The position numbers and the translations under genes are program-made. The notes under the pieces were generated by a model. That model saw only the letters and a list, made by a program, of their open reading frames with translations, made no database searches and was not told where the DNA came from. This document shows, in pieces, positions 2,905 through 57,688 of a stretch of DNA of 64,000 nt. Position 1 is the first letter of the stretch. Each line of letters begins with the position of its first letter. This DNA comes from Vicinamibacteria bacterium (lineage in GTDB: Bacteria; Acidobacteriota; Vicinamibacteria; Marinacidobacterales; Marinacidobacteraceae): assembly GCA_965115855.1 (NCBI GenBank), contig OZ220470.1, positions 1,743,385-1,807,384 of the forward strand. Reading direction: 5' to 3'.

Positions 2905-2980
2905 CCCGCGGCCATCGAAGACGGACGCGATGTGCCCCGGGCGGATCGGGCGCGTCCCGCTGGCGGCGCCGGCGCCCATC

Positions 2981-5392: not shown

Positions 5393-5639
5393 CCCGCCTT
5401 CGCTGATCGGGGCCCCGTCCCGGGATGGCCCTCCATCCCGACGCCCCGGGCGGGTCCCTCCGGGCGACCAGGGGCGAGCACACCTTCCGGGCGGACCGAT
5501 CCGGATCACCGGCTCTCCCAACCACCATGCGGCGCCGGCCCGCCACTGGATTCGCGGCGACGGCGCCGAAGCGGGGCGCCGGGCTCCCGGGAAAGCGAAA
5601 GCTGCAGTCCTGGTCCGTCGCTTGCATGGGATGCCCGCC

Positions 5640-7997: not shown

Positions 7998-8274
7998 CCC
8001 GCCGTTGCTGATCGGGGACCACCGTCTCCGGAGTGGACTCCACCCCGCGATCCACCCTTGGCGTACCGGGCGCGTCCTTCCGGAAGACTCCGGGCAACCA
8101 GGGAACGCGCGCGCCTGTCGCGCGAACCGATCCGGGCGGCAGCGGACGGCGCATTTTCCGAAGCAGAACCCCGGCGTCGAGCCTGGAAACTCCGGCCCCC
8201 GGTTCAAGACCGCCCCGCCCGGTTGGCCCACGGCTTGCTTTGGTCAGGGAACATCTACACGGAGGTCCCACACG

Positions 8275-10668: not shown

Positions 10669-10813
10669 CCCGCCGCCGTGATCGACCGTCTCCAGGGCGG
10701 GATCGGCGCCCCGCGCCATCCCGGGTGATCGGCGGCGACGAGCTTCCCGGGGAGCGAACGTTCCGTCCCTTGTCTTGCGACAGTCTGGCCCACTGTTTGC
10801 CATTGTGCCCCCC

Positions 10814-13153: not shown

Positions 13154-13460
13154 CCCGCCCTCGCTGACAGGGGGGACGTGCACGCAACCCCGAGATCCTG
13201 AACGACGGCCTCACCAAGCCATGCATCGGATCCCCGGAACCTGGCTGCCTCTTCGGGCCGTACCGGTCCCCGGGGGCGAGACGTCTCCGGAAGCACGGGA
13301 GCCGTTCCCGCAAGAAGCCTTCATCCACGGATCGTGGAGTTGCTGCGCGTCCCGGTCGGAACCCTTTGCCCAACCATCAGACCTGGTCCGAGGGCGAGGC
13401 CGGCCGACTCGGGAAGCCCCCGCGGGCGCGACGTATAAAGACGGCGCGAGCCGATCCGGA

Positions 13461-16400
13461 TTACGGGACCATCTCCGGCTCCGGATTCTCCGCCGCCTCC
13501 CGATGGGAATCCCGGTGCGCCTGGATCTCTTCGGGAAGCAGGAACCGGCGGTGTTCGCGGAGCCCGGAACCGGCCGGGACCAACCGGCCCATGATCACGT
13601 TCTCCTTGAGTCCGCGCAGGTAGTCCACCTTGCCATTCAGCGCGGCGTCGGTGAGCACCTTGGTGGTCTCCTGGAATGATGCGCCGGAAATGAAGCTGTC
13701 GGTGGCGAGCGAGGCCTTGGTCAAACCGAGCAACATCGGTTCCCCCTGAGCCGGCTTTCCCCCTTCCTGCTGCGCCTTCTGGTTCGCCTGGGCGAATTCA
13801 TGGCGCTCGATGACCGCGTCCACGATCAGTTCGGTATCTCCGACATCGGTCACCCGCACCCAGCGCATCATCCGGCTGATGATCACCTCGATGTGCTTGT
13901 CGTCGATCACGACCCCCTGGAGGCGGTACACCTCCTGGACCTCGTGCACCAGATACCGCTGGAGCTCCCCCTCGCCAAGCACCCGGAGGATATCGTGGGG
14001 GTTGCGTGGTCCGTCCATCAAGGGATCGCCGGCCCGCACGTCTTCCCCTTCCCGCACGCTGATGTGCACTCCGCGGGGAACCTCGTACTCGCGCACATCG
14101 TCGGTGACCTGGGAAATCACCCGGATCACCCGCTTGCCCTTGCGGATTTCACCGTGCTCGAGACGCCCGTCGATCTCGCTGATGAGAGCCGGGGAACGCG
14201 GCGGGCGGGCCTCGAAAAGCTCCACCACCCGGGGCAAACCGCCGGTGATGTCCTTGGTCTTGGTCGTCTCCCTCGGAATCTTTGCCAGCACATCGCCCGG
14301 ATGGACCACATCGTCCGGACCGACCTCCAGGTGGGCGCGCGACGGCATCAGGTAGCTGCGCAGCACTTCCCCGTCGGCGCCGACGATATGGATTCGCGGC
14401 TCGCGGGTATCGTCTTGGGATTCGATGATGACTGCCTGGGAGCGGAAGGTGACGGGATCCACCTCCTGCACCATGGTGATGTCGGGAAGGATGTCCTCGA
14501 ACTTCACGACTCCGCCCTCTTCGCCGAGGATCGAGAAACTGTAGGGATCCCACTCCACGATGATCTGTCCGGCGGTCACCTTGCCGCCTTCGGCCGTCTT
14601 GATCCGGGCGCCGTATACCACCGGATGGTTCTCCAGCGCGTGGCCGTGTTCCCCGACGACTTCGATCGCGCCAGCCCGATTGATCACCACCAGGTTGCCA
14701 TGCCGGTCCTCCACCGTGCGCAGATCCGAAAGACGAATGACCCCGTCGTGCCTGGCCTCGATCGCCGAGTTCTCGAACACGCTTGCGGTCCCGCCGATGT
14801 GGAAGGTGCGCATGGTGAGCTGGGTGCCGGGTTCGCCGATGGACTGCGCCGCGATGATCCCCACCGCCTCGCCGAGATCCACCAGCCGCCGGGTCGCCAG
14901 GTTGCGTCCATAGCACTTCGCGCAGACACCGCGAACTGCCTCGCAAGTCAACACCGAACGGATCTTGACGCGCGGGACGCCGGACGCCTCGATGTCGCTC
15001 GCCTTCTCTTCCGAGATCTCTTCCCCCGCATCCACGATCAGTTCGCCATGGAAATCCTTGACCTGCTCGAGACTCACCCGACCGACGATCCGGTCCTGAA
15101 GGGGTTCGATGACCTCCCCGGCCTCGATGATGGGCTCGGCGTAGATCCCGCGCGGCGTGGCGCAATCCACCATCGTCACGATGACGTCCTGGGCGACGTC
15201 CGCAAGACGCCGGGTCAGATATCCGGCATCCGCGGTGCGCAGGGCGGTGTCCGCAAGCCCCTTGCGGGCGCCGTTGGTGGAAATGAAGTACTGGATGACG
15301 CTCAAACCCTCGCGGAAGTTGCTGGTGATGGGCGTCTCGATGATCTCCCCGGAGGTCTTGGCCATCAGTCCGCGCATGCCGGCAAGTTGCCGGATCTGCT
15401 TCTCGCTTCCGCGCGCGCCGGAGTCCACCATCATGAACACCGGATTGAAACGCCCGGTCTCCTGCTCGCGGGACTCCATGGTGGCGAGCATGTCCTCCGC
15501 CACCTTGTTCGTGGCGCCCGACCAGACATCGATGACCTTGTTGTAGCGCTCGCCCTTGGTGATGGCGCCCTCCTGGTACTGCTCGTCCACCCGACCGACC
15601 TCGGCCTTCGCCGCCTCCACCAGACCCACCTTGTTGGGGGGCACCACCAGATCCCCGAGACCGATCGAGGCGCCGCTCCGGGTCGCGTACTCGAAGCCGA
15701 GTTCCTTGAGTTCGTCAAGAATGACGCCGGTCTCTTCGAGGTCGTAACGCAGATGGATATAGCGAACCAGGCTCTGGATGCCCCGCTTCCTGAGCACACC
15801 GTTCACGAACGGCATGTCGGCGGGAAGGCGCTCGTTCAGGATCACCCGGCCCACGGTGGTGCGGATCCGCTCCCCGTCCATGCGAACCGGTTCCATCCGG
15901 GTGAGGTTCTGGCTGTCGTGAGTCTCGAGCACCTCACCGGTACAGCGCAGGGAAATGGGGGTCAGGGTCCCCACCGAACCGCTGTCCCGGGCGAAGAGCA
16001 CTTCATCCACCGACCCGAACGACTTGATCTCCTTCGGGGGGATGACCTGGGGCTTGGTGAGGTAGTAGAGCCCGAGAACCATGTCCTGGGTCGGGACGGC
16101 CAGCGGACCGCCGTGGGCCGGTGAAAGGATGTTGCGCGAGGACCGCATCAGGAGAGCGGCCTCGGCCTGGGCTTCCGGAGATAGCGGCACATGCACCGCC
16201 ATCTGGTCGCCATCGAAGTCGGCGTTGAACGCGCTGCAGACCAGCGGGTGGATACGGATTGCCTTTCCCTCCACCAGCACCGGTTCGAAAGCCTGGATGC
16301 CGAGCCGGTGGAGGGTCGGAGCGCGATTCAGCAACACCGAATGGTCGCGGATGACCTCCTCCAGATAGTCCCAGACTTCGGGACGCTGCTCTTCGACAAG

Positions 16401-17798
16401 TTCCCGCGCCTGCTTGATGGTGGCCGCCAGCCCCTCGTGCTCCAGTCGGTTGAACAGGAACGGCTTGAAGAGCTCGAGGGCCATCTTCTTGGGAAGCCCG
16501 CACTGGTGCAGCTTCAGCTCCGGCCCGACCACGATGACCGAACGGCCGGAATAGTCCACCCGCTTGCCGAGAAGATTCTGTCGGAACCGGCCCTGCTTGC
16601 CCTTGAGGGTGTCCGAGAGGGACTTGAGCGGACGGCTGTTGGCGCCCTTGATCACCCGCCCCCGGCGGCCGTTGTCGAAAAGCGCGTCCACCGCCTCCTG
16701 CAGCATCCGCTGCTCGTTGCGCACGATGACGTCCGGCGCGCGCAACTCCAGCAGCCGCTTCAGACGGTTGTTGCGGTTGATGACCTTCCGGTAGAGCTCG
16801 TTCAGATCGCTGGTGGCGTAACGGCCGCCATCGAGCTGGACCAGCGGTCGAAGGTCCGGCGGGATGACGGGAATCGCCTCCATGATCATCCATTCCGGCA
16901 GGTTGCCGGAACGCCGGAAGGCATCCACCACCTTGAGCCGCTTGGCGGCCTTGGCCCGCTTCTGGATCGACTTCGCTTCCCGCATGTCCACGCGCAGCGT
17001 GACCGAAAGTTCGTCGAGATTCGCTGCTCGCAACAGCTCCTTGACTGCCCCGGCGCCCATCCCCAACCGATAGACTGTTCCCGGACGGCGCATCTTCTCC
17101 CGGAACTCGTTGTCGGTCCGCCCGAACAGCCTCTTCAGCAGCCGATCCTGTTCGTCGGTGACCACCTGACCCACGCGGAGCGTTCCCAGCCGGATGGTGC
17201 GAATCCGGTACTCGTCGTCATCATGATCCACCGCGAAGGCGAACAGCGACTGGAGCAGCTCCACATCCTCGCGCAGCAGCTTCTGGTCCTGCTCCTTGAG
17301 CAACTCCAGGTCCAAGTCACCGGGCTCGAGCACCACATGGGACTCGTAGTACAGGACCCGTTCGAGTTCCCGGGGGGTGAGATCAAGGATCTGCCCGATT
17401 CGGCTGGGTGGCACCTTGAAGAACCAGACATGCGAGACCGGACACGCCAATTCGATGTGTCCCAAACGGTTGCGGCGCACCGAAGCCTGAGTGACTTCGA
17501 CCCCGCACTTGTCGCAGATCACGCCCCGGTGCTTCATGCGCTTGTACTTGCCGCACAGGCATTCCCAATCGGTGACCGGTCCGAATATCTGCGCGCAGAA
17601 GAGGCCGCCGCGCTCCGGTTTCTGCGTCCGGTAATTGATCGTCTCGGCCTTCGTCACCTCGCCATGGGACCAGGCACGGACCCGCTCCGGAGACGCGATC
17701 GAAATCTTGATCGCGTCGAAATCGGAGCTGAACGCCTCTTTCTCCTCGAGTTCCGGGAATACGCCGGTCGCGTCGCGACTCGTGGGTTGCGTGGACAT
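13461..17798 (-). CDS. rpoC: DNA-directed RNA polymerase subunit beta'
   Basis: 1445 aa; N-terminus ...[49 protein letters not shown]... (zinc-binding), NADFDGD active-site motif. Confidence 0.97.
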
Positions 17799-17811
17799 GT
17801 TCCGGACTCCT

Positions 17812-20800
17812 TCAGTTCTTGGCGCGAATGAGCTCGATGTCGAGACCGAGACTCTGCAGTTCCGCCATCAGTACCTTGAATGACGCCGGCACTTCGGGTG
17901 CGTATCCGGTGTCGCCCTTGACAATGGCTTCGTAGACCCGGGCCCGACCCCGAACATCGTCGGACTTCACGGTGAGAATTTCCTGGAGGGTATGCGCCGC
18001 TCCATAGGCTTCAATGGCCCACACTTCCATCTCGCCGAAACGCTGCCCCCCGAACTGGGCCTTCCCGCCAAGCGGCTGCTGGGTGATCAGGCTGTACGGT
18101 CCGATGCTCCGGGCGTGCATCTTGTCATCCACCAGATGACCGAGTTTCAGCATGTAGATGTAGCCCACGGTAACCGGCTGCTCGAACGGCTCGCCGGTGC
18201 GTCCGTCGTAGAGTTCCGTCTTCCCCTCGTCAAGGACGTTGGGCCGGAATGCCTGCGTCTTGCGGGCTACTTCGTTTGCCTCGTCCAGGAGCCCGCGGAT
18301 GTCGTCTTCGCGGGCGCCGTCGAAAACAGGCGTTGCGAAGCTCCGGCCCAGGACCTTGGCAACCCATCCGAGATGGGTTTCGAGAACCTGACCGATATTC
18401 ATGCGCGAGGGAACGCCCAACGGATTGAGCACGATGTCCACCGGCGTACCATCGGGCAGGTACGGAAGGTCCTCCATGGGGACGATCTTCGCAATGACAC
18501 CCTTGTTGCCATGGCGCCCGGCCATCTTGTCGCCCACGCTCAGCTTGCGCTTCATGGCGATGTAGACCTTCACCATCTTGATTACGCCGGGGGGGAGGTC
18601 GTCGCCCTGGGACGCGATGTCCTTCTGCTCCTGGCAACGCACATCCAGAAGCTCGAGCTGCTCCTCGGTCTTCTCGTGGATTTCCTGGATCTCCTCCCGC
18701 ACTTCGGAACCAAGGTCGGTCTCGAGCAGGGGAACGAAATCCATCTTTTCCTCGAGCAGCGATCGGGTGAGGCGGGTTCCCTTCGGGATTTCCACCTCGT
18801 TGATCGCCGGATTCATGCAATCCTCGACCAGCTTCGCACCGATCATGCGGCGCACGATCCGCTTGTCGGCCTCCTCCTTGAGAATCCGGGCCTCGTCCTG
18901 GTGATCGCGGTCGATCGCGGCCACATCCTCTTCTTCGATTTCGAGGGCGCGCTGATCCTTGTCGGCATCCTTGCGGTGGAAGACCCGGACATCCACGACC
19001 ACGCCCTCCACGCCGGAAGGACACTTGAGCGAGGAGTTCTTCACATCGCCGGCCTTGTCACCAAAGATGGCGCGAAGCAACTTCTCTTCGGGGGTGAGCT
19101 GGGTCTCCGCCTTCGGGGTCACGCGACCCACCAGAATGTCTCCCGGCGAAACCCGCGCTCCGATCCGGACGATGCCGGACTCGTCGAGGTGCCGCAGGAA
19201 GGTCTCGGCGACATTGGGGACTTCGCGGGTGATGGTCTCCGGCCCCAGCTTGGTGTCGCGAGCCTGGACCGAATGCTCTTCGATGTGAATCGAGGTGTAC
19301 ACATCGTCCTGAACCAGCCGCTCCGACACGACGATGGCGTCTTCGAAGTTGTATCCGCGCCAAGGCATAAAGGCCACCAGCACATTGCGTCCGAGCGCCA
19401 GTTCCCCCTGGTCGGTGCAGGGGCCGTCGGCGATGACCTGCCGCTTCGTCACCCGGTCTCCAACCCCCACGATCACCTTCTGGTTGATCGCGGTGTTCTG
19501 GTTCGAGCGGCGGAATTTCTTGAGCCGGTAGATGCTGGCGCCGATATCCACCTCGCCATCTTCGTCGACGTCGCGCCGAACGATGATCCGCCGGCCATCC
19601 ACCGTGTCCACAATGCCGTTATCCCGGCTCACGATGACCGATCCCGAATCGCGGGCGGTCACGTGCTCCATGCCGGTACCCACCAGCGGCGCTTCGGAGT
19701 GAATCAGGGGCACCGCCTGGCGCTGCATGTTGGAACCCATCAGCGCCCGGTTGGCGTCATCGTTTTCGAGGAAGGGAACCAGGGAAGCCGCCACCGAGAC
19801 AATCTGCCTCGGCGAAACATCGATGAACTCCACGCGCTCCCGAGGCGACGGGACAAACTCGCCTTCGTGCCGACAGTTGACCCACTCGTCCAGCAGCTCG
19901 CCACCCGCGCCGACCCGGGCGTTGGCCTGGGCGATGGTATGGCGTTCCTCCTCGAGCGCGGACAGGTAGAACGCATGCGGCGTCAGCGCCGGCTGCCGTT
20001 TCCTCTTGCCGAGCCGCGACACCACCTTGTCCGCTTCCCCGCGGCTCAGTACCGCGCCCTTATCGAGGCTGGTGTCTCCCGGATCCTCCACCCGAACGTA
20101 GTCCACGATCCGACCGCCCTCCACCTTGCGGTAGGGGCTCTGGATGAAACCGTAGTCGTCGATCTTCGCGTAGCAGGAAAGGGAGCTGATCAGTCCGATG
20201 TTCGGACCCTCCGGGGTCTCGATCGGGCAGATGCGCCCATAGTGGGTGGCATGAACGTCGCGCACGTCGAACTTCGCCCGGTCGCGTGAAAGACCGCCAG
20301 GACCGAGCGCCGAGAGCCGCCGCTTGTGGGTGATCTCCGACAGCGGATTGGTCTGCTCCATGAACTGGGAGAGCTGGGATGCCCCGAAGAACTCGCGCAC
20401 CGCCGCCGACACCGGCTTCGCGTTGATCAGGTCCCGCGGCATCGCCGTGGTCATCTCCTGATACACATTCATCTTCTCGCGGATCGCTCGCTCCATCCGC
20501 ACCAGGCCGAGACGGAACTGGTTCTCGAGCAGTTCGCCAACCGACCGAACCCGCCGGTTGCCGAGGTGATCGATGTCGTCGGCTCGATACCCGGTCTCGC
20601 CCTGGCTGAGTCGGAGCAGGTACTGCAACACATTGATGAAGTCATCCTCGGTCAGCGTGGTCTGACGCGGGTCCATCGAACATTTGAGCTTGGTGGCCAA
20701 CTTGCGCCGACCGACGCGGGAGAAGTCGTACTTCTGTTCGTTGAAGAACAGGTTGCGCAACAGGGTGCGGGAACTCTCGACTGTGGGTTGATCCCCCGGA

Positions 20801-22035
20801 CGCTGCCGCCGGTACAACTCGACCAAGGCGCCCTCCACGCTCTCCGCGTTCGGGGTCTCCCCGCCTCGCAGGCGGGTCAGGGGATCCTTGGCGAGGGTCT
20901 CGGCAACATAGGGGCCCACCGGATCCACATGGGGCACGATCACCGGCAGGGTGTCGAGACCATGCAGCTCGGTCAGCACTTCGGCGGTAATCGCCGTATT
21001 CGCCGGAATCTCCTCGCCGGTGTCCGGCACCGTGACCGGTCGCGCCAGCCGGAAGCCTCCGAGCGCTTCGACCTGGAAATCGAGATGGCTCGGCGCCTTG
21101 CGGTCCAGAATCCGAAGCTCCCGGGAACCGATGCGCCGGGATCCCTTGACCAGGACCTCGTCGCCCGACTGCAGGTCACGCTCGATGCGCTGGTCGCGCA
21201 GCAGCGTCTTCAAGTCATCGGTGTAGGGAATACGGAGCCCGGTGGAAGTGATCTCCGCCTCCTGAATGGTGTAGAAACGCTCGATGATCGTCTCGGTCTT
21301 CCCGAGTCCCAACGCCCGCAGCAGAACGGTGCCGGGAAATCGCTTCTTGCGGTCGATGCGGACTTGCAGCATCCCCTTGGCATCAGTCTCGAATTCCAGC
21401 CACGACCCCCGGTAGGGCACGACCTGGGCCACATGGACGTCACGTTCCGGATGGCTGAAGAACACACCCGGCGAGCGATGGAGCTGCGAGACAACCACCC
21501 GCTCGGTACCGTTGATGATGAAGGTGCCGTTCTCGGTCATCAGCGGGATGTCACCGAAGAAGACCTCCTCCTCCTTGATGTCATGGATGGACCGCTGATT
21601 GGTCTCCGCATCCCGGTCCCATACGGTCAAGCGGATCTTCACCCGCAGCGGCACGCCGAAGGTCTTTCCCCGCTGCTGGCACTGTTCGACATCGTGTTCG
21701 ACCTTGAGGTGGACCCGATCCCCGCAGTAACCACAGACGGAATCCTGTTCCGCATGGTGGATCCCCTCCAGATCCCCGCAACTGCAAGCCCAGCTCCCCA
21801 CCGAGTACTCGAGAAAATCCAGTTCGCAGTTGTCGCGGAAATCCTTGATCGGGAAGATGGACTGGAAGACCGCCTGGAGACCGATCTCCTCCCGATCCGC
21901 GGGCTGGACGTCCTTCTGGAGGAACCGCTCGTAGGACCGGTGCTGGACCTCGATCAGGTCCGGCAACGGAATGGAGGCGTGTATACGGGAAAAGGAGTGC
22001 CGCTCCCGTACGGTTGCGGAATCGCTGATCAACAT
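17812..22035 (-). CDS. rpoB: DNA-directed RNA polymerase subunit beta
   Basis: Start taken at [31 protein letters not shown] (aligns with E. coli rpoB N-term) inside ORF 17812..22131; conserved rpoB blocks throughout. Confidence 0.95.
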
Positions 22036-22204
22036 GGAAAACACCGCGGACGGACATTTCCGGGCCGGAATTCCAGCCTGGACACGCCCCCGGAAGACAC
22101 CCGGCGCCGGGCGCCCGCCATCAGCAGGCACCCGGCCGCCGGAGGAAGAAGGAAGACCCGTCGGATCCGGGAAAAGGCCACAGCCACCAAATCGTTACTG
22201 CGAC

Positions 22205-25585: not shown

Positions 25586-26773
25586 CTATTCGAGGACCTC
25601 GCTGATCATCCCGGAGGCCACGGTGCGTCCGCCCTCGCGGATGGCGAAACGGAGGCCGCGATCCATGGCGATGGGAGTGATCAGTTCCACCTCGAGCTGC
25701 ACGTTGTCTCCCGGAATCGCGATCTCCTGGTCTCCCAGCAAGGTCGCGGTGCCGGTAACGTCGGTGGTCCGGAAATAGAACTGCGGGCGATACCCGCTGC
25801 GAAACGGCTTCTCCCGCCCCCCCTCCTTGCCGGAGAGGACATAGACCTCGGCCCGGAACTTCGTGTGCGGCGTGATGGAACCGGGCTTGGCCAGGACCAT
25901 GCCGCGCTCGACTTCCCGCCGGTCGGTGCCCCGCAGGAGAACGCCGACGTTGTCGCCAGCCTCACCCTCGTCGAGAAGCTTCTTGAACATTTCCACACCG
26001 GTGACGACGCGCTTGCGCGTTTCGCGAATGCCGACGATTTCGATGTCGTCGCCGACCTTCACCCGGCCGCGTTCGATCCGACCGGTGACCACCGTGCCAC
26101 GACCGGAAATCGAGAACACATCCTCGATGGGCATCAGGTAATCCTGCTCGATCGCCCGCTTCGGAATCGGCACGTACTCGTCGAGCGCCGTGGCGAGTTC
26201 CTTGATCGGCTCCCAGGCCTCCCCGCCGTCGGCGTTCAATGCCGCGAGGGCGCTTCCACGGATGACCGGGATGTCGTCGCCGGGAAAATCGTATTCGGAA
26301 AGCAGCTCGCGAACTTCAAGTTCGACCAGCTCGAGCAACTCCTCGTCGTCGAGCATGTCCACCTTGTTCAAGAAGACGACGATCCGGGGAACCCCGACCT
26401 GCCTGGCCAGCAGGATGTGCTCGCGGGTCTGCGCCTGGGGCCCGTCGGGCGCCGAAATGAGGAGCACCGAGCCGTCCATCTGAGCTGCGCCGGTAATCAT
26501 GTTCTTGATGTAGTCGGCGTGGCCCGGGCAGTCAACGTGGGCATAGTGCCGGTTGCCGGTCTCGTATTCGACGTGGGCGGTCGCGATCGTGATGCCGCGC
26601 TCGCGTTCCTCGGGCGCGTTGTCAATCGAATCGAAACTGCGGAACGAACCGCCGACATCGGCGGCCAGAACCTTGGTGATGGCCGCGGTCAGGGTCGTCT
26701 TGCCGTGATCCACATGGCCGATGGTCCCCACGTTGACATGGGGCTTGGTGCGTTCGAACTTCTCCTTCGCCAA
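25586..26773 (-). CDS. tuf: Elongation factor Tu
   Basis: 395 aa; [37 protein letters not shown]... Confidence 0.98.
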
Positions 26774-48323: not shown

Positions 48324-49528
48324 CCAGCGCACCCGCCGTCGGTGGAGGACGCCGGGCACTGCCGCCAGTGCCCACGCTGGCAGGGGCCTCGGCGCCGCCG
48401 CCGAACAACGCGGCGCCACCGTCATACCGCAGCGAGTCGGGCCGTTCTGTTGTTCGAACGCTCCGGAACGTCGTTGGCGGCGAGTTTGGCATGGATCGGA
48501 GTACGCGACCGAAACAGCAAATTGCGGGCAAGTGATGGAGGCCGCGCGCCCCCGGACCGGGGAACTGACACGACAGTTCCGGGATTCCGAGTACTGCACC
48601 CGCGAGAACCGGTCAACGATGCGGGTGATCGGCAAGGCCGAGTACCTTCCCCGGGTTACGGGAACCCCCGGTTCCGGGTTTACCAACCTGAAGCGCAACT
48701 CGACACCCGGTGTCCTTGCGAGGATCGGTACCACGCCCGCTGCGGACATGGGGACTCGGATCACCGACGTCTTCCGACACGTCTTGCGCAATCTCGAACG
48801 CATTCGCCTTGGGCGAGACCCGGGTGGCGACGGCGCCATCCCGCCCCGAAGCATCATCTCTCCCGACACCGAGGAGGCACGTCTGCGCCCCGGTTCTGAT
48901 CAACACGCGAAACACTACGAAACACGTTTCCTGACCATCCGGCTCCTCTCAATCCACATTTTCCACCATCCCAAGGTACTTCAACCGGAAAACGGAACTC
49001 CGAAACCTGCAATGGGGCACTCTCCACCAGGTTAATGGAGGCGGGTCTGATACTTGGCGTATCAAAGCCGGACAGAAACAGGTTCGCAACGCCGCGGGAT
49101 GTCCAAAGCGATCCGCTCGTCATCCGCATCCGTCTCTCGCAAGGCCAGGTTGCGATAGTTCCCTGCCTCCCGACCCTCCGGATAAATCACCGGTTCGGAC
49201 TACCGTATTCCATCGGCCAAGACCTTCTTCAGACTCTCCGCCAGAAACTCGAGACCTGTCGCCGGACACTCTCCGCCGCTCATCCAGCAATTCGCGCGAG
49301 GCGCGGTCGGCACACTTCATGGCCATTCGTCAACTCCTTGCAAAACGCACCGCACGTCCCCACCCCATCCCGAGCTTCAAACAGTTCCCACCGTAAGACC
49401 CGCAATCTCACGCATCCCCCCCAACATCACCCCGGCTCGCCCACCCACCCACCCTTAAAACAACCACACCCGTCGTGTAGTTGCTGCCGCGAGGCGGCGC
49501 CGTGCCAATCCCTGATCGAAACTCCTAC

Positions 49529-49535
49529 AGGAGGT
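49529..49535 (+). promoter_or_regulatory. Strong Shine-Dalgarno (AGGAGGT) 7 nt upstream of lipoprotein A start codon
   Basis: ctacAGGAGGTaggtgatATGaaa. Confidence 0.6.
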
Positions 49536-49542
49536 AGGTGAT

Positions 49543-51846
49543 ATGAAACTGAATCCCCCCAATGGGCGGCACGCCATCAGTCGCTGGCGCCCGGTCTCGG
49601 TGGGCCTCGCGTTGGTCTTGGGAATCGGTCTGCTCGCAGCTTGTGGCGACGACGATCCTGCCCCCGCTCCGGCCCCCGCTCCGGCCCCCGCGCCAGCTCC
49701 CGCTCCAACTCCAGAGCCAGAACCGGAACCCAAACCCGAACCCAAACCCGAACCCAAACCCGAACCCAAACCAGAGCCGGAACCAGAACCCGATCCCTTC
49801 GTCCTCTCAATGGCTCCCCCCAAAGCCGACGCGGACAAAGACTGCATGGGGTACGCTTTCTGCCCAGATGAAGAAACTGACGCCAAAAAAGCCATGGCCT
49901 CTCCAAACTCCATGATGACCGTCTCCTCCTCTCACGACGCCGTCATCACCCCCCTCTGGATGGATTCAGAACCCAACGGTATCGGTGTCTCCGCAGCCGA
50001 CGACAACATGCCCTTCAAAAATGTCGACTGGAACGCCATGCAATCCACCGTCGCAAACATGGGCGTCTCTTTCAAAGCCGTCAGAGTCTCCATCGGCGCT
50101 AACCAAGAAAAAATCCCAACCTCCGAAATCCTCTACATCACCTGCGGCCCATTCGCCTGCTCCGACGCCGCAGCCGAAAAACCCCAAGCTCCCGAAATCT
50201 CCGCCGAATCCACCAACATCTGCGCCAACTGGGACCCCGATCTTACTCTACAAGTCGGTATGATCGATAATGATACGAGAAGTACGTCGGGAGCTTGGTA
50301 TACCAACAAGATTATCCCAGCGTATGATTCGCTCGGCGGTACTAGAAGTGATGCCACGCATTACGATTTTTTGGATATAGTGTCAACAACAAGAACAACA
50401 AATGCAAGTATCTGGTACGCTGATGACGGAATCGATATCGGATGGTCGTCGACTTCCGATGTGGACATGAAAGTCAAACATGTCTTCGGAAACTACAGCG
50501 TCATGGGACCAGATGCGAATAAAGGTACGAACAAACCTCTCAATGTCGATCTTAAAGCGGAGAATGTTTCCTACGCCCCCGCCGTTCAAACAACCAAATT
50601 GACTGTTGATGCTGCTGATAGAACCGCAACTACTTCAGATAAAGTTGACAAACTGTCCGAGGCCTGTGTCGATGCAACCAAATACTCAGGCGTTAGCGGT
50701 TCAGCCCAAAGACCAAACAATTGTTTCCGCCTTCGAGTTTCCGGCACGGAAACTGCCGGGTTTGTAGGAACCCCGAGATTGACGAACCACCTCTCCAGTT
50801 ATAGTGTGGAAGTCTCTCCCAAGGACCCCATGCTCTGGGGCAAGGTCGCATGGAAGGATGGTCCGCTCAAGGATCTCAAATGCGAAACCATGCGTTTCGC
50901 CGCTGCCGACCAAATTGATGTCTGCGAACTCTTCGAAGAGGAGGTCGATCACGCTCTGTCAGGCGGTTGGGACGACGTCGAGGTGAAGGGTAGTAAGCGT
51001 AAGCTCGTCAATCCACGTGATGGTATGGGAGTAGAGCATCCCTATGCCGGTCTCGTGCGAGTTTTTCTCAAAAACGCATCAAGCGTAAAACCTCGGCACT
51101 TCCGGAGACTCTGGTTCGACGACAACATGGATGGAAGCATCGTGGATAAAGCAGAGACATTTGGATACCAATATGTGTTGAATTTCGACGAAGAAGCAAC
51201 CGAACGAAGTGGCAATAACCCCGCACACGGCAAAGAGGGGAGTGGCTGGGATATAAAGCCAATATCATTTGGTCAGACATCGGCTCTCGAACCGGTTAGA
51301 CTTTCTCGGAGAGCGAGCGATCTGTACAATTATAATGATTACACTGAAACCCCAGGCTCCGTGTCAAATGACGGAGACTACATTAAGGCCTTTAATGTCA
51401 ATGCCATCTGGACACCAGTAGTCGACCAAAATCTTCTTCCCCTTCCTAAATACGGCGACTTTGGGAAGGTTGATGTTGCAAAGACTACAGTAAACGACGC
51501 CTCCACAACCAGGTCAGTTGAAGCTGCTGTAGATGGAGACGGCATAGCCGATAACTACTACGGCATTCCCGCCAGATGCTCGGATGAAGACGGCGGCAAG
51601 GGGTGCGATGCGAAGTGGGAAGAGGACTTCGAGATTCTCTTTTCGGATCTCATCTTCGGCTGCGAAACAACGCACGCCGTGACCATCAGTTGTGAATGGG
51701 ATGCCCAAGGTACATTCGGGAGGCCCCCGGAGAAGCATGCAATAAAGGACGGTACAACGGGTGGTGACGACAGCGTAGCAGATTACGAATACGCGAGACT
51801 TCTTATCAAAGAGATAGATCATTTCGCCAAGTGCACCGTGGAATAG
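49543..51846 (+). CDS. Variable surface lipoprotein A: signal peptide + lipobox (LLAAC), Pro-rich PAPAP/KPEP linker, Cys-containing domain of unknown family (expression copy)
   Basis: 767 aa; MKLNPPNGRHAISRWRPVSVGLALVLGIGLLAACGDDD...; low-GC (~45%) body vs ~70% host; ends ...HFAKCTVE; intact RBS. Confidence 0.75.
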   Translation: MKLNPPNGRHAISRWRPVSVGLALVLGIGLLAACGDDDPAPAPAPAPAPAPAPAPTPEPEPEPKPEPKPEPKPEPKPEPEPEPDPFVLSMAPPKADADKDCMGYAFCPDEETDAKKAMASPNSMMTVSSSHDAVITPLWMDSEPNGIGVSAADDNMPFKNVDWNAMQSTVANMGVSFKAVRVSIGANQEKIPTSEILYITCGPFACSDAAAEKPQAPEISAESTNICANWDPDLTLQVGMIDNDTRSTSGAWYTNKIIPAYDSLGGTRSDATHYDFLDIVSTTRTTNASIWYADDGIDIGWSSTSDVDMKVKHVFGNYSVMGPDANKGTNKPLNVDLKAENVSYAPAVQTTKLTVDAADRTATTSDKVDKLSEACVDATKYSGVSGSAQRPNNCFRLRVSGTETAGFVGTPRLTNHLSSYSVEVSPKDPMLWGKVAWKDGPLKDLKCETMRFAAADQIDVCELFEEEVDHALSGGWDDVEVKGSKRKLVNPRDGMGVEHPYAGLVRVFLKNASSVKPRHFRRLWFDDNMDGSIVDKAETFGYQYVLNFDEEATERSGNNPAHGKEGSGWDIKPISFGQTSALEPVRLSRRASDLYNYNDYTETPGSVSNDGDYIKAFNVNAIWTPVVDQNLLPLPKYGDFGKVDVAKTTVNDASTTRSVEAAVDGDGIADNYYGIPARCSDEDGGKGCDAKWEEDFEILFSDLIFGCETTHAVTISCEWDAQGTFGRPPEKHAIKDGTTGGDDSVADYEYARLLIKEIDHFAKCTVE
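49726..49773 (+). repeat. 12-nt tandem repeat (gaacccaaaccc; KPEP) x4 in linker of lipoprotein A; 2-3 copies in mirrored position of copy B
   Basis: Direct reading of sequence; in-frame copy-number difference between paralogs. Confidence 0.8.
49743..50274 (+). repeat. Left arm of perfect 532-bp inverted repeat (identical to 54150..54681 rev-comp) inside 5' part of lipoprotein A
   Basis: Identical six-frame ORF translations on opposite strands (49966..50187 vs 54237..54458; 49985..50263 vs 54161..54439; coordinate sums constant 104424) plus manual rev-comp comparison to boundaries. Confidence 0.9.
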
Positions 51847-51885
51847 GACCTACTTCCTGTTGATCTGATCGCTGTCGATCAGTCC

Positions 51886-51924
51886 AGAACCCCGGGGCTA
51901 TTCGGCCCCGGGGTTCTTCATTTG
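51886..51924 (+). terminator. Rho-independent terminator downstream of lipoprotein A (13-bp GC stem agaaccccggggc/gccccggggttct, then ttcattt)
   Basis: Perfect hairpin immediately after stop codon 51846. Confidence 0.7.
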
Positions 51925-52176
51925 CACATAAACCGGCGCGTGACAGCGACGCAAACCGACACGCTTCACAAGTTTGTTCAATTTGGGTGTTCGAAACCCG
52001 CTTCGCGGGCGTATCCCGGATCGGGTTCCCGTGGTTCGACGGACCTGACCTCTTCCCGTTGACGAACTGAGGTGATCTCGGGTCCTTGGACAGTTTGAGG
52101 GCTTGGTCAGGGTGCAAAAGGTCATCCCTTCGTGATCGTCGAATTCGCCCGAACGGGTGAACCCTGGCTTGTTTTC

Positions 52177-52440
52177 TCCGCCGGATCCAGGATCACCGGG
52201 AAAGTCGAATCTCGCGATTGGCTCACGACCTTACGACAAGAGTCCCTCGCCATAGGCTTCGGCGGGCGTCCGCCCTCCGAGGGCCGAGTGCGGGCGCTGG
52301 GTGTTGTAGAACCGCATCCACTCCCCGATCACTCGTTCGGCCGCGAACCCGTCGGCGAGCTCGTGGAGGTACACCGCCTCGTACTTCAGGGACCGCCACA
52401 GCCGTTCGATGAAGATGTTGTCGAGGAGCCGCCCGCGACC
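52177..52440 (-). mobile_element. IS3-family transposase remnant (C-terminal rve/integrase fragment + probable terminal inverted repeat TGAACCCTGGC...), 5'-truncated
   Basis: ORF 52231..52488(-) contains ...LLDNIFIERLWRSLKYEAVYLHELADGFAAERVIGEWMRFYNTQRPHSALGGRTPAEAY (IS3 OrfB C-terminus); only ~65 aa present. Confidence 0.7.
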
Positions 52441-52486
52441 GTCCATTGAGAGCCGGGTACCCGCCGCCGCGTTAGGTTCATGTGCC

Positions 52487-52523
52487 AATGAAGAACCCCG
52501 AGGCCATCCGGCCCCGGGGTTCT
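52487..52523 (-). terminator. Rho-independent terminator downstream of lipoprotein B (mirror of the 51886..51924 hairpin, one mismatch)
   Basis: gaaccccgaggcc-atcc-ggccccggggttc on + strand; followed on minus strand by ttcattgg. Confidence 0.6.
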
Positions 52524-52562
52524 GGACTGATCGACAGTGATCAGGTCAACAGGAGATTGGTT

Positions 52563-54824
52563 CTATTCCACCGTGCACTTGGCAAAGTTGTCAACGTTCG
52601 CGCGACCGGCGATATCAGCCACGCCGAGTTTGCCTTTCACCCTATTGTCGTTCCCAGTTTCCGACGCAGGAGGAAGATTGTTCAACAGGCCTTGGGCATC
52701 CCACTCGCAACTAAGGGTCACCGTACGCGTCGCTTCGCAACCGAAAATGAGATCCGAGAACAGGACCTCGAAGTCCTTTTCGAACTCGGCGTCGCAGGCC
52801 TCATTGCCCGCGTCACCATTGTCGCCTTTGGAGCAGGTGGAGGAACCGGCGGGATAATTGTCGGCCACGCCGTCCGGCTTGGCCAAATCTTTACCATAGA
52901 GATCCACTTTCCCGAAGTCTCCGTAAATGGGCATCATCCCGCCATCCGTGAGTGTCCCCCAAATGAAGTCGATATTCCGATTGTGAAAATACTCGTGATC
53001 GGATGCATTAATACCAGATATCTCGTGGGGGGAGGCGTCTCCACGGTTAACAAACCCGTACAGGTCATGAATAACACGAGCCAAAATGGTACCTCTTGAT
53101 GGGATAGAATCCCTTGCGGATGTAGTACCAGGGGCAGCATCGAAATAACCTAATTCGTTGCTATTTCCCATCACTACCAAACCGTCCTTGAAGTAGTCCA
53201 AACTCTCTTCTTCTCCGTCGTCGGCGGTCGGGTGTTTGAATGCCGCCCCTGCATTGCCTTCTGCTATGCTAGAGCCCCGAGCTTCACTCTGAAGAAGCGT
53301 ATTGGGACCGTCGGCAACCGACCCATCCAAGTTGTCATCGAACCAGAGCCGCTTAAACCGCTTGGGCTTCGGGCGGCCTCCTTTGGGGCCGACCTGCCAA
53401 GTAGCCAGAACAAATCCGCCGTCTGCTCCTTCTACGATACTCCCTCGGTTATTCTCACTATCTGAGTTGCTGTTCGCCGCAATGCGCCGTTTGACATTTA
53501 TCCTGACGTCGCCCCAGCCCTTGGCCAAGGCTGCATCGACCTCGTCTTCCAGGAGTTCGCAGACGTCAACCTGATCGGCAGCGGCGAAGGACATGGACTC
53601 GCACTTCAGGTCCTTGAGCGGACCCTCTTTCCATGTGACTTTGCCCCAGAGCATGGAGTTGGAGTCCTTTGGAGAGACTTCCACGCTGTATCCATCCAAG
53701 TGGTTCGTCGTGCGCGCCCGACCCGGGCCTCTGACAAGACTTTCAGTTCCACCGACGCGGACGCGGAAACACTGGTCCGGTTTTTGGACACCACTGCGCG
53801 AAGAAGAGTAATCGACATCAACGGCGCACGCGTCTTTCAAATTCCCGACTTTTTCCAACACAGGAGTGGCCGGCGTGACCGGCTCCTTGATTTTATCGAC
53901 TTGGATGGCGGGGGCGTATGTGGTCCTGTTGGCAGAGTCGACCGTGAATGGTTTGTTCGTACCTTTTTTCGCATCCGGCCCCATGAAGTTGTAATTACTG
54001 AAAACATGCTTCACGGTCATGTCCACACTGGAGGTCGACACCCAACCGAGATCGATTCCGTCGTCTTCGGCCCAGATGTCTGGATTTGATGGGTTGGCGC
54101 CTAGATCATGAATAGTCCTGTTTTCAAATCTACCTCGCATATCATAGATATCATTATCGATCATACCGACTTGTAGAGTAAGATCGGGGTCCCAGTTGGC
54201 GCAGATGTTGGTGGATTCGGCGGAGATTTCGGGAGCTTGGGGTTTTTCGGCTGCGGCGTCGGAGCAGGCGAATGGGCCGCAGGTGATGTAGAGGATTTCG
54301 GAGGTTGGGATTTTTTCTTGGTTAGCGCCGATGGAGACTCTGACGGCTTTGAAAGAGACGCCCATGTTTGCGACGGTGGATTGCATGGCGTTCCAGTCGA
54401 CATTTTTGAAGGGCATGTTGTCGTCGGCTGCGGAGACACCGATACCGTTGGGTTCTGAATCCATCCAGAGGGGGGTGATGACGGCGTCGTGAGAGGAGGA
54501 GACGGTCATCATGGAGTTTGGAGAGGCCATGGCTTTTTTGGCGTCAGTTTCTTCATCTGGGCAGAAAGCGTACCCCATGCAGTCTTTGTCCGCGTCGGCT
54601 TTGGGGGGAGCCATTGAGAGGACGAAGGGATCGGGTTCTGGTTCCGGCTCTGGTTTGGGTTCGGGTTTGGGTTCGGGTTTGGAGCGGGAGCGGGAGCGGG
54701 AGCCGGGTGGGTGGGTGGGATGGTGGATGCTGATAGCGGAGGCGGCGCGGTACCCGAGGAGACTTGGCGCCCGATTGATCCGTGGGGCCGACGGGCGGTG
54801 TCCGACAAGGGCGCACAGGTTCAC
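52563..54824 (-). CDS. Variable lipoprotein paralog B (5'-truncated/silent cassette candidate): lacks signal peptide; 5' 532 bp identical to copy A, remainder diverged and mosaic
   Basis: 753 aa ORF starting at GTG with non-hydrophobic N-terminus MNLCALVGHRPSAPRINRAPS...; PAPAP linker segment is out of frame with KPEP segment relative to copy A; ends ...NFAKCTVE. Confidence 0.6.
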   Translation of the reverse strand: MNLCALVGHRPSAPRINRAPSLLGYRAASAISIHHPTHPPGSRSRSRSKPEPKPEPKPEPEPEPDPFVLSMAPPKADADKDCMGYAFCPDEETDAKKAMASPNSMMTVSSSHDAVITPLWMDSEPNGIGVSAADDNMPFKNVDWNAMQSTVANMGVSFKAVRVSIGANQEKIPTSEILYITCGPFACSDAAAEKPQAPEISAESTNICANWDPDLTLQVGMIDNDIYDMRGRFENRTIHDLGANPSNPDIWAEDDGIDLGWVSTSSVDMTVKHVFSNYNFMGPDAKKGTNKPFTVDSANRTTYAPAIQVDKIKEPVTPATPVLEKVGNLKDACAVDVDYSSSRSGVQKPDQCFRVRVGGTESLVRGPGRARTTNHLDGYSVEVSPKDSNSMLWGKVTWKEGPLKDLKCESMSFAAADQVDVCELLEDEVDAALAKGWGDVRINVKRRIAANSNSDSENNRGSIVEGADGGFVLATWQVGPKGGRPKPKRFKRLWFDDNLDGSVADGPNTLLQSEARGSSIAEGNAGAAFKHPTADDGEEESLDYFKDGLVVMGNSNELGYFDAAPGTTSARDSIPSRGTILARVIHDLYGFVNRGDASPHEISGINASDHEYFHNRNIDFIWGTLTDGGMMPIYGDFGKVDLYGKDLAKPDGVADNYPAGSSTCSKGDNGDAGNEACDAEFEKDFEVLFSDLIFGCEATRTVTLSCEWDAQGLLNNLPPASETGNDNRVKGKLGVADIAGRANVDNFAKCTVE
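54150..54681 (-). repeat. Right arm of perfect 532-bp inverted repeat (see 49743..50274)
   Basis: As for left arm. Confidence 0.9.
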
Positions 54825-54970
54825 TTGAACGCATCAAGCATCCTGTGCGCGATTGCACGCACACGGACGGGTCGGCGATTTACAAGGAACGGGAATAAAT
54901 ACACGGGCCGGCTTTCACGCGTGTTATCCCAAGTCATTCCAGGCGCGTCTCCGTGCTCCCGGAAACGCGC

Positions 54971-57688
54971 CTATGGCTCGGTGGAACCGTTGGTTCGGTA
55001 TCCCAGGCTGAGGAGGTTGGCGAGCAGTCGGTAGGCGCCCGGCGTTCCCTCCGGGAGCTGGCGCCACAGGCCGAGACCCAGATAGAGCCAGCGACCCTCG
55101 CCGTGACGGATCTCCACGAGGATGCCGCGCTTCTCGCCAGCGTTGTACGGGAAGGGATCCTCCGACGCCAGCAGGTCGATCGCGGCGGGATCGTCGCCGG
55201 TCTCGAGGAAGTAGAGGCCCCGCTCCTGGACCCATCCGTCCCAGTCGGCGGGGCCGATGCGGTTCGGGCCGAGAAAGACCGGATGATCGGGAACCAGGAC
55301 CTGCATGGGCGCATTCTCGTCGGTAATGCGGCCGCGTCCGACCCGAATCGGTGAGGGCGCCCAGGGGCCGGCATTGAACTCGAACTTGTTGTACTGGACG
55401 AGGAGGGTGCCGCCATCCGCCACGAAGTCCAGCAGGCGCTGGTTGTAGGTGCGGAGGTCGGGGCGGGCGAGATAGGCGCGCACGCCGAGCACGATGGTGT
55501 CGAATCGGGAGAGGTCGCCCTCCGCGAGATCCTCCTCATCCAGGAAGGTCAACGAAACGCCCAGTTGGCCGATGGCCTCCGCCACCTCGTCTCCGACGCC
55601 CTCCACCCAGGCGACCTTCACCGGGGCCACCGTCGCGTCCAGAACCCGCGCCAGCGCCTCCGCCGGGCGGAAGCGATACCGGGTCTCGATGTGGTGGTAG
55701 GCGATCGTCTCGACCGTCTCCCCGAAGACCGTGCCGTCCGCCAGCCGGACTTCGGCGGCGAGCCGGTACCCACCATCGGCGACGCCCGCGGGAACCGTGG
55801 CCTCGAAGGCGACGCCCTGCTCTCCGGGGCCGGAAAAACGGAGCGTTGCGGATGCCGGACGCACCTCCCAGCCGGATGGTGCATCAAGACCGACCTCGAC
55901 CTCGGCCTCCTCCACGCTTCGCCAGGTCACCCGCACCGAGAGGGAGCGGGTTCGTTGCCCCCGGGGAAACACCACGATCGGGGGTGTCACCCGAACCGCG
56001 GCAAGCGGCAACACGGAAACCTCCTTCTGCTTCTCGGTTCCCACGAAGGGACCGCCATAGCGATACGCGACCGGCAGGGTGACGCTTGCGGGAATGTCGT
56101 CGGTCTCGAAGTCCACCCGGGCGCGGACCGGGGACGGAGGCGCGGCGGCCCCGAAGAGCGACGGATCGGAAGCGACGAACCGGTCCCGGCCCGGCGCCGC
56201 GTCGAATACCTGCCGACTGAGCGTCGCATCCGCTGCCGCGGTCACCCGGAAGGAGGCGCGGACCGCATCGCCTGTCGCCATCTCCACCGGGAAGTCGGCG
56301 CCGACCACCACCGGTCGCGCCTGCGAACGGGATCCGCGCCCCCGGGCCGGGGGTTGCGCATTCGGCCCGGTCTCCCAGCCGTCCGGGGTCTCTATCGAGA
56401 TCCCGGTCAGCGTCAGCGGTTCCGAACCGCCCGCCTGCACGAAGACCTCGGCCCCGAAGCTTCCCCCCGGAACCACTTCGCCGGCGTCCGCCACCGGATG
56501 CGTCAGCAACCCGTGGGCGAGCGCGAGTGCTTCCTGAATCTGGACTTCCTTGGGGGCGACGCGGTGCCGGATCTCGAGGACGGCGCCCGGATCCAGGTCG
56601 GCGGAGACCTGAAGCACCCGCCGCGCGGCGATCAGGGCTTCCCGGAGCGCCGGGATGGACTCGTGGGGTGATGTGGAGGAAAAGGCCCACTGCGCACCAC
56701 CGACGGCTCGTTCGAGATCGCCGAGAGCCCGCTCGGTGGCGACGACCGCGTCCGGGTCTCCATGCACGAAGGCCCGCAGCCGTTCCAGCCCCACTGGAAT
56801 ACCCGGGAAGAGATCGTTCTCGCCGGTCTCCGAAACCAGATTCCGCATTTCCACCAGGACCGCCGGCCCGGACGCCGGGGCGCCGCGCACCTGTCCCATC
56901 CCCTGACAGCGGTGCGCCGAGCGGGCCTCCTGACCGAGGTCCGCGTATGTCCGCCCGAGCAGCGGATCCCAGATCGCGGTGTCCACCCGCACTACCCGGT
57001 CCCCGGCGACGGTGCCCCCCCCGACGCCCCCCACGAAGAGCTTGAGCGGTTGCCAGGGACGCAAACCGAGTTCCCGATGCTCGGGAAACCGCTCGGCGTC
57101 GCCGGCAGCGTCGAAGGCTTCGATGGTGATCCGCCCGGTCGCCTGGTGGTGCTGGCCGCCTCCCTCGCCCGCGGGTGGGAGGGTCAGGATCACGTCGGGA
57201 CGAAGGGTCCGGATCATCCGCACCACTTCACCGAGCGTTTCCTCGTGGCCCCACTTCTTGAGGGTCTCCTCGACACTGAACGAGTATCCGAAATCGGAGA
57301 CCATCCCGAAGAACTGTTCCACCGCGTCCAGCCGGTGCGAGGTGAGGAGTTCCTCGGTGCGCAGGATCCGGAGGCCGTCAAACAGTTCGGGGCCGATCTC
57401 GTTCTGACCGCCGCCGCCCCGGGTCAGCGTCAGCAGCGAGACCCGGGCCCCCATCCCTCGGGAAAGGCGGGCGTGGAGGGCGTTGTTCTCGTCGTCCGGG
57501 TGGGCCGTGATGGTGAGGACGGAGACGCCGCTTTCGATCTTGCGCAGCTTGAGCCCGAGGCCGGATGCGCCACGATCCTCGGCGAGGGGGCGGAGCTGTG
57601 CAGCGGTCGGAGCGGCAAGCAGCAAGACGAGCAGCGGGGCGGCTGCCGCTAGGACTGCCCGCACTCGGTGCGTGGATGCGGTGATCAT
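54971..57688 (-). CDS. Secreted PIG-L/LmbE-family N-deacetylase fused to large C-terminal domain (905 aa)
   Basis: Signal peptide MITASTHRVRAVLAAAAPLLVLLLAAPTAAQ; ...LTITAHPDDENNALH... PIG-L motif. Confidence 0.75.
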   Translation of the reverse strand: MITASTHRVRAVLAAAAPLLVLLLAAPTAAQLRPLAEDRGASGLGLKLRKIESGVSVLTITAHPDDENNALHARLSRGMGARVSLLTLTRGGGGQNEIGPELFDGLRILRTEELLTSHRLDAVEQFFGMVSDFGYSFSVEETLKKWGHEETLGEVVRMIRTLRPDVILTLPPAGEGGGQHHQATGRITIEAFDAAGDAERFPEHRELGLRPWQPLKLFVGGVGGGTVAGDRVVRVDTAIWDPLLGRTYADLGQEARSAHRCQGMGQVRGAPASGPAVLVEMRNLVSETGENDLFPGIPVGLERLRAFVHGDPDAVVATERALGDLERAVGGAQWAFSSTSPHESIPALREALIAARRVLQVSADLDPGAVLEIRHRVAPKEVQIQEALALAHGLLTHPVADAGEVVPGGSFGAEVFVQAGGSEPLTLTGISIETPDGWETGPNAQPPARGRGSRSQARPVVVGADFPVEMATGDAVRASFRVTAAADATLSRQVFDAAPGRDRFVASDPSLFGAAAPPSPVRARVDFETDDIPASVTLPVAYRYGGPFVGTEKQKEVSVLPLAAVRVTPPIVVFPRGQRTRSLSVRVTWRSVEEAEVEVGLDAPSGWEVRPASATLRFSGPGEQGVAFEATVPAGVADGGYRLAAEVRLADGTVFGETVETIAYHHIETRYRFRPAEALARVLDATVAPVKVAWVEGVGDEVAEAIGQLGVSLTFLDEEDLAEGDLSRFDTIVLGVRAYLARPDLRTYNQRLLDFVADGGTLLVQYNKFEFNAGPWAPSPIRVGRGRITDENAPMQVLVPDHPVFLGPNRIGPADWDGWVQERGLYFLETGDDPAAIDLLASEDPFPYNAGEKRGILVEIRHGEGRWLYLGLGLWRQLPEGTPGAYRLLANLLSLGYRTNGSTEP

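Follow-up and report, generated by a model that had tools for sequence, protein, structure and literature searches.

The window, by which we mean the whole 64-kb stretch of DNA that was analyzed, contained two convergent paralogous genes, designated gene A and gene copy B. Gene A (positions 49543-51846, plus strand) encoded a predicted lipoprotein of 767 residues and carried a Shine-Dalgarno sequence (GGAGG), an ATG start codon and a lipobox, LLAAC (…GLLAAC). From its 5′ end, the gene comprised a lipoprotein signal and a PAPA/PEPK linker rich in Pro, followed by a constant block and by a C-terminal region that was variable. Copy B (52563-54824, minus strand) was an open frame of 753 codons, of which residues 71-753 were identical to the protein P0002. 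The homology of B to A started just after the lipobox, and none of the frames that precede the constant block of B offered a start context, a Shine-Dalgarno sequence or a signal peptide. On sequence grounds, copy B is a candidate silent cassette.

We found that the constant 5′ block of A (49742-50275, plus strand) and that of B (54149-54682, minus strand) formed a perfect inverted repeat, the two partners being 100% identical over 534 nt. A stretch of 155 amino acids in this block was identical in A, B and two further family members, P0001 and P0003, which were encoded on the source contig (3,016,700 bp) but not in the window. The four sequences diverged abruptly at one shared point, and beyond the constant block the members of the family were 15-98% identical in patches. 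Upon inspection of a related genome of 2.86 Mb, we observed eight dispersed copies of this lipoprotein family, among which the constant block was only about 85% identical and the 3′ flanks were unrelated; the perfect block and the shared hairpin-bearing flank described below are therefore specific to the source genome.

Additional features of the family were observed. Pro-rich PAPA/PEPK repeat DNA preceded the constant block in both copies (49657-49790 and 54627-54720). In copy B, the PAPA and KPEP runs were in different frames and the former was read as SRSRSRS, a frame offset that is consistent with B being 5′-truncated and receiving no translation from upstream. The C-terminal ~45 residues of P0003 were unrelated to the family consensus and the conserved ...NFAKCTVE end was absent, which suggests that P0003 is a frameshifted or truncated, pseudogene-like cassette. 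In the related genome (locus L082, ERZ25068685 ctg6959_18x_c), an IstB_IS21 fragment was present upstream of the family member P0004 and a DDE_Tnp_1 transposase gene lay directly downstream of it (sites 4385-4972 and 12247-13902); insertion sequences thus recur beside genes of this family.

Homologs of gene A were rare in the protein search, and the family profile retrieved relatives of only 26-30% identity from metagenome contigs. The Pfam search with A and B returned low-complexity matches only and no domain. The AlphaFold2 model of the gene A product had a mean pLDDT of 55, and a Foldseek comparison of this model with the PDB revealed nothing significant. Protein A itself was missing from the protein collection. 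Cassette switching between assemblies was considered as a reason for this and rejected, as the EF-Tu of the window was missing too, while other proteins of the window were present.

Inverted arms, hairpins and the surrounding island

The 3′ ends of the two genes were embedded in a pair of inverted arms. The left arm (51823-51934, plus strand) consisted of the last 8 codons of A and 88 nt of 3′ flank with a hairpin, and the right arm (52475-52586, minus strand) was its counterpart downstream of B. The two arms were 86% identical when one was read as the reverse complement of the other, with 14 mismatches in the 88 nt of the non-coding part (16%), and their common midpoint was located at ~52204.5. 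The spacer between the arms was 540 bp in length.

Each arm contained a large hairpin. Hairpin A (51886-51917, plus strand) had a G+C-rich stem of 14 bp and a loop of 4 nt, followed by TCATTTGC, and is the putative terminator of gene A. Its twin, hairpin B (52492-52523, minus strand), was situated downstream of copy B and differed in having one G.U pair. The hairpin pattern occurred at these two sites only in the 64-kb window and at none in 100 shuffled versions, and the flanks that contained the hairpins had fold z-scores of -4.8 and -3.7 relative to shuffled sequence. The same pattern gave no match when it was compared with metagenome contigs. The initial annotation had described the pair as twin terminators; two near-identical hairpins with 14-bp stems were indeed present, and a terminator role for them is plausible, although the T-tract 3′ of the stem was weak (TTCTTCATTT), the tail UCAUUUGC contained 4 U in 8 positions, and neither hairpin was called in a scan for consensus terminators. 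A smaller conserved hairpin, CTGATC....GATCAG, which comprised two GATC sites, was also found in both arms just upstream of the large one (51865-51882 and 52527-52544).

The locus had further been described as mirror-symmetric as a whole. As evident from the comparison of A and B, this held for the two convergent paralogs, which were mirrored, but the upstream neighbors were unrelated and the amino acid identity between A and B was only 53%. The pair and its spacer, together with 1.2 kb upstream of A, formed a low-G+C island (~48600-55000) with a G+C content of 47-56% against a background of ~70%. In the region of ~1.2 kb upstream of A (48324-49542), no recognizable gene was found and the open reading frames had no Pfam match; this region may be the promoter or regulatory region of an expression site, or decayed sequence. 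A scan for sigma-70 promoters across 49000-55500 called none, a result that is not informative for this lineage.

Farther away in the window, five tandem subtilase (Peptidase_S8) paralogs of 790-890 residues with a mutual identity of 76-86% were present on the plus strand (517-13153) and represented a second expanded family. The segment 13461-27407 contained rpoC and rpoB (13461-22131, minus strand), tuf (25586-26773, minus strand) and a cluster of tRNA genes for Trp, Thr, Gly, Tyr and Thr. These genes place the island of variable lipoproteins in the core chromosome and not on a plasmid or phage. The nearest EF-Tu with a name, at 80% identity, was that of Vicinamibacteria.

The IS3-family remnant and its right end

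Most of the spacer was occupied by the remnant of an IS3-family insertion sequence (52068-52472, minus strand), which was 405 bp long and corresponded to the 3′-terminal part of a ~1.34-kb element. With a G+C content of ~62%, the remnant stood out within the surrounding low-G+C island. Its coding part (52231-52472, minus strand, with the stop codon at 52231-52233) represented the last ~80 residues of the OrfB transposase, and the translation of this frame was AAAGTRLSMDGRGRLLDNIFIERLWRSLKYEAVYLHELADGFAAERVIGEWMRFYNTQRPHSALGGRTPAEAYGEGLLS*. The translated fragment matched the Pfam model rve_3 with an E-value of 5.8e-16 (model positions 2-67 of 67) and the NCBIfam IS3 transposase model NF033516 with an E-value of 3e-20, the latter as a partial match to the last 71 positions (298-368 of 369). 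In a blastn search against plasmids, the DNA of the remnant matched genes annotated as ‘IS3 family transposase’. The presence of a 5′-truncated OrfB C-terminus on the minus strand of the spacer, as proposed initially, was thereby confirmed.

Elements of the IS3 family are two-ORF (OrfA/OrfAB) DDE elements that use -1 frameshifting and have TG...CA ends and target repeats of 3-4 bp. A scan of representative genomes with the peptide of the remnant revealed hundreds of relatives, of which the best showed 87-88% protein identity, and at the DNA level the remnant was 82% identical to intact copies in many MAGs (blastn, 52242-52472). A search of the protein collection yielded, among the best 120 matches, only short proteins, none with more than 88% identity and none from the source contig. 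The closest elements were ~1.34-1.8 kb in length and came from soil and sediment MAGs (L002 3033-4374, L016 and L032). By aligning near-identical copies within several genomes and by locating 3-bp direct repeats, we delimited complete elements of 1342 bp (L002, 3033-4374) and 1341 bp (L032, 3033-4373). These relatives were of the TG...CA type, with the ends TGAGGTGG.CCCGG...GGACAG...TTAAGGTGTATTCC, and were flanked by the direct repeats ATG, ATC and GAG. They encoded OrfA (HTH_Tnp_1) and OrfB (HTH_21, rve and rve_3), and their OrfB scored 272 bits against NF033516, for which the equivalog cut-off is 160.

Upon comparison with the intact 1342-bp relative from L002, the remnant was found to correspond to positions ~950-1342, and positions 950-1165 of that element were covered in the tblastx and blastn comparison with the window. 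The remnant and the intact elements shared the right-end motif ...GCCCTC...CTGTCCAA...CACCTCA, and they agreed in orientation and in the distance from the stop codon to the end, the 3′ untranslated sequence in the remnant being 163 nt. In contrast to the intact elements, only the last ~30% was retained. The left inverted repeat (IRL), orfA, the frameshift site and the two catalytic aspartates, contained in ~950 bp of the 5′ part, were missing, and the E of the DDE triad was kept alone. No second piece of the element, that is, orfA or the rest of orfB, was found elsewhere in the 64-kb window. Because orfA and an intact orfB were absent from the window, the element is a remnant and not a working member of the IS3 family; with all of the 5′ parts named above gone, it can neither transpose nor be mobilized through two ends. 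Its ISfinder subgroup may be IS407/IS51-like.

The right end of the element was determined by aligning the right ends of more than 60 related copies, which gave the conserved terminus ...GCCCTCG.ACTGTCCAA....GGACCACCTCA. In the window, the right terminal inverted repeat (IRR) and the subterminal region were located at 52068-52117 on the minus strand (plus-strand reading, TGAGGTGATCTCGGGTCCTTGGACAGTTTGAGGGC...), and the right end, TGAGGTGATCTCGGGTCCTTGGACAG, had its outer end at 52068. The minus strand reads ...AAGCCCTCAAACTGTCCAAGGACCCGAGATCACCTCA, which is the conserved end, and continues into unrelated DNA, so the terminus of the element is 52068; the window sequence closes at this position with ...CACCTCA, and the left end has been deleted. 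When the 3′ untranslated part was compared with a dozen relatives by blastn, all alignments started exactly at 52068 and reached the termini of the relatives themselves. Additionally, a degenerate pattern built from the conserved end positions had one match in the window, and none was expected by chance. The triplet AAC (52065-52067) flanks this end and would be one copy of a 3-bp target duplication.

The initial annotation had placed a probable terminal inverted repeat, TGAACCCTGGCTTG, at ~52177. This sequence (52167-52180, plus strand) turned out to be internal 3′ untranslated sequence of the element and was rejected as a terminus; it lies ~100 bp inside the true boundary at 52068 and has no counterpart in the termini of the relatives.

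Between the left arm and the end of the element lay 133 bp of unique spacer (51935-52067), which showed no similarity to any sequence in the window or in the compared loci. It had no significant fold and no Rfam match, and its open reading frames had no Pfam match; it is presumed to be the original intergenic DNA. On the opposite side, the junction was sharp and fell in the interior of the element: homology to the insertion sequence extended to 52472, and homology of the right arm began at its inner end, 52475, with 2 nt in between. The broken end of the element was thus situated within the transposase gene, not at an IS terminus, and the base of hairpin B was 14 nt away. No Rfam match was obtained in 51000-53400, and no tRNA or tmRNA gene was found in or near the spacer.

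The insertion sequence had also been said to sit exactly at the symmetry axis. The midpoint at ~52204.5 did fall within the remnant, but this position is uninformative since the remnant takes up three quarters of the spacer (405 of 540 bp); its placement is asymmetric, flush with the right arm and 133 bp away from the left arm.

Timing and history of the remnant

The divergence of the two genes and that of the insertion sequence were compared. In a codon-wise comparison of A and B, pS was 0 over the 534-nt block and 0.4-0.86 elsewhere, where it was saturated. The IS fragment, on the other hand, had kept the consensus residue at all 39 of the positions at which conservation among 48 distinct relatives was 95% or higher. 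Its differences from the relatives were distributed over codon positions 1, 2 and 3 as 6, 3 and 25, as was also the case between intact copies, so that the fragment had acquired nearly all of its divergence while selection still maintained a functional transposase. Had it been inactive over the whole period of arm divergence (~8% per lineage), ~6 replacements should have accumulated at conserved sites, and none was observed; the expected number is our own estimate and assumes that the 3′ flank was neutral and was not reset by gene conversion. As the closest relatives are only 82% identical at the DNA level, a certain amount of decay in the fragment might go unnoticed against the lineage divergence. 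From the absence of replacements against the ~6 expected, the truncation is young relative to the gene pair.

The preferred history is that a complete insertion sequence entered the spacer between convergent paralogs that had already diverged, and that one illegitimate deletion then removed its 5′ part; we consider this history probable. According to this proposal, a complete ~1.34-kb element would have transposed into a selectively neutral spacer between the 3′ ends of pre-existing, diverged genes, with the insertion point at 52067/52068 and the right end of the element toward gene A. A single illegitimate deletion, not mediated by the transposase, would then have taken ~950 bp of the 5′ part together with any spacer DNA between the element and copy B, stopping 14 nt beyond the base of hairpin B, and its endpoint would have set the inner end of the right arm at 52475. 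Bacterial intergenic regions harbor other IS relics, solo or truncated, which are likewise inert, occupy permissive sites between convergent genes and are truncated by internal illegitimate deletions. In contrast to typical relics of this kind, the endpoint of the deletion here is 14 nt from a long perfect palindrome; long palindromes favor deletion endpoints. No orthologous locus was found in the genome and metagenome collections that were searched, in which the scan of genome contigs with the IS peptide returned relatives of up to 88% identity.

That the arm ends exactly where the element is broken would be predicted equally well by a rearrangement that brought B to a broken element. In such a history, which we regard as unlikely though not negligible, an insertion sequence would have been resident downstream of A and one illegitimate breakpoint would have fallen inside it when copy B and its hairpin flank were brought beside A by inversion, translocation or cassette insertion; the other part of the element would lie elsewhere in the genome. 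The sharp junction, with only 2 nt of slack, coincides exactly with the end of the homology between the A and B flanks, at least two more cassettes (P0001 and P0003) are located elsewhere in the genome, so cassettes have moved, and the youth of the fragment relative to the divergence of A and B allows a late juxtaposition. Nevertheless, the rearrangement needs two coincident illegitimate joints, whereas the deletion needs one, and long cohabitation with gene conversion is the simpler account of the 534-nt perfect repeat and of the 3′ flank that A and B have in common. The second piece of the element, moreover, is absent from the 64-kb window, and, as a weaker point, the best 120 protein matches include no IS3 protein from the source contig.

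The initial annotation had offered two explanations for the insertion sequence, namely, that it had mediated the inverted duplication or that it had been inserted later and was then eroded. The first of these, in which transposition-associated inversion or duplication, or recombination between two IS copies, would have generated the pair before the element eroded, is very improbable. IS-derived sequence does sit between the arms, but the genes are synonymously saturated (pS 0.4-0.86), while the fragment is essentially undecayed, with none of the 39 conserved residues changed. In addition, the arm meets the element inside orfB, whereas the junctions produced by IS-mediated events are at the termini of the element, or complete copies remain; the arm of A is set apart from the IS end by 133 bp of other DNA; and the dispersed paralogs of the family in the related genome are not accompanied by this element. 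The timing, the interior junction and the further family members elsewhere thus argue against an IS-mediated duplication. An origin of the inverted pair through the insertion sequence was not supported, and, as far as the sequence comparisons indicate, the element appears to have arrived after the gene copies had diverged. The second explanation was essentially right with regard to later insertion; the element, however, had undergone a single clean truncation and not erosion. We can hardly credit that the fragment belongs to another rve-type integrase (prophage, Tn552-like or retron-associated) or is a chance open reading frame, because, even though rve_3 is common to IS481 and other DDE integrases and the fragment matched IS481 with an E-value of 1.9e-10, the best profile was IS3 (3e-20), the nearest full-length relatives scored above the IS3 equivalog cut-off, and a characteristic IS terminus followed the stop codon at the expected distance and orientation.

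Under the preferred history of insertion followed by deletion, both events postdate the divergence of the copies, so the mirror symmetry cannot be attributed to the insertion sequence; it stems from the lipoprotein genes. The element in the spacer is a dead, ordinary IS3-family relic without function, a passenger between the two copies of the 534-nt perfect inverted repeat. Its value is that of a timing marker, as it indicates that, once the copies had diverged, both an insertion and a deletion could be accommodated in the spacer.

Possible exchange of the variable regions

We tentatively propose that the A-B locus could be an invertible antigen switch, in which A is the expression site, B is a silent inverted cassette and the IS relic is a bystander; this reading is possible, though we hold it with less than even confidence. 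Gene A would supply the promoter, the Shine-Dalgarno sequence, the lipoprotein signal and the constant block. Recombination of the RecA type between 49742-50275 and 54149-54682 would flip the interval 50276-54148 and swap the variable C-terminal parts of ~520 residues. P0001 and P0003 might serve as further donor cassettes elsewhere in the genome, and the conserved hairpin-bearing 3′ flank might act as the downstream boundary of the cassette. When the expression signals of the two copies were compared, a Shine-Dalgarno sequence, an ATG and a lipobox were found in A and none of these in B, yet all 753 codons of B were open. No recombinase gene was found in the 40-64 kb part of the window. Given 534-bp repeats and no recombinase gene nearby, any switching would proceed by general homologous recombination.

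In Campylobacter fetus, only the sap homolog located downstream of a single promoter is transcribed, and recombination exchanges the homologs (PMC3887049). The sap system comprises multiple homologs of an S-layer gene, and, similar to the A-B locus, these have an identical 5′ block with divergent remainders; several copies in which an identical block stands beside divergent regions were found here as well (A, B, P0001 and P0003). Of the A-B pair, one copy only has expression signals, which may correspond to the single promoter of sap, and the inverted pair could exchange by homologous inversion. There are also differences. The A-B proteins form an unrelated, uncharacterized lipoprotein family in an uncultured organism, and the locus is known from one arrangement. 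Furthermore, the A-B genes, unlike those of sap, are arranged tail to tail, and because of this geometry an inversion would swap the 3′ variable parts and would not move the promoter.

In its geometry, the locus is comparable to systems that swap C-terminal parts by inversion, namely, the G segment of Mu, the C segment of P1, the shufflon of R64 and the pilin inversion of Moraxella (tfpQ/I), in which the constant 5′ part lies outside the invertible interval, as it does at the A-B locus. In those systems and at the A-B locus, the interval carries two convergent alternative 3′ parts. The invertible segments of Mu, P1, R64 and Moraxella recombine at short crossover sites (19-34 bp) by means of a site-specific recombinase of their own, which is encoded nearby. 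The A-B locus differs from them in its 534-bp repeats and in having no recombinase gene nearby.

The feature worth attention at this locus is the cassette-like pair of lipoprotein genes, and the IS fragment itself matters little. If the proposed exchange is true, it would be a previously undescribed switch and would extend surface variation of the sap or shufflon kind to a free-living, uncultured, high-G+C environmental lineage.
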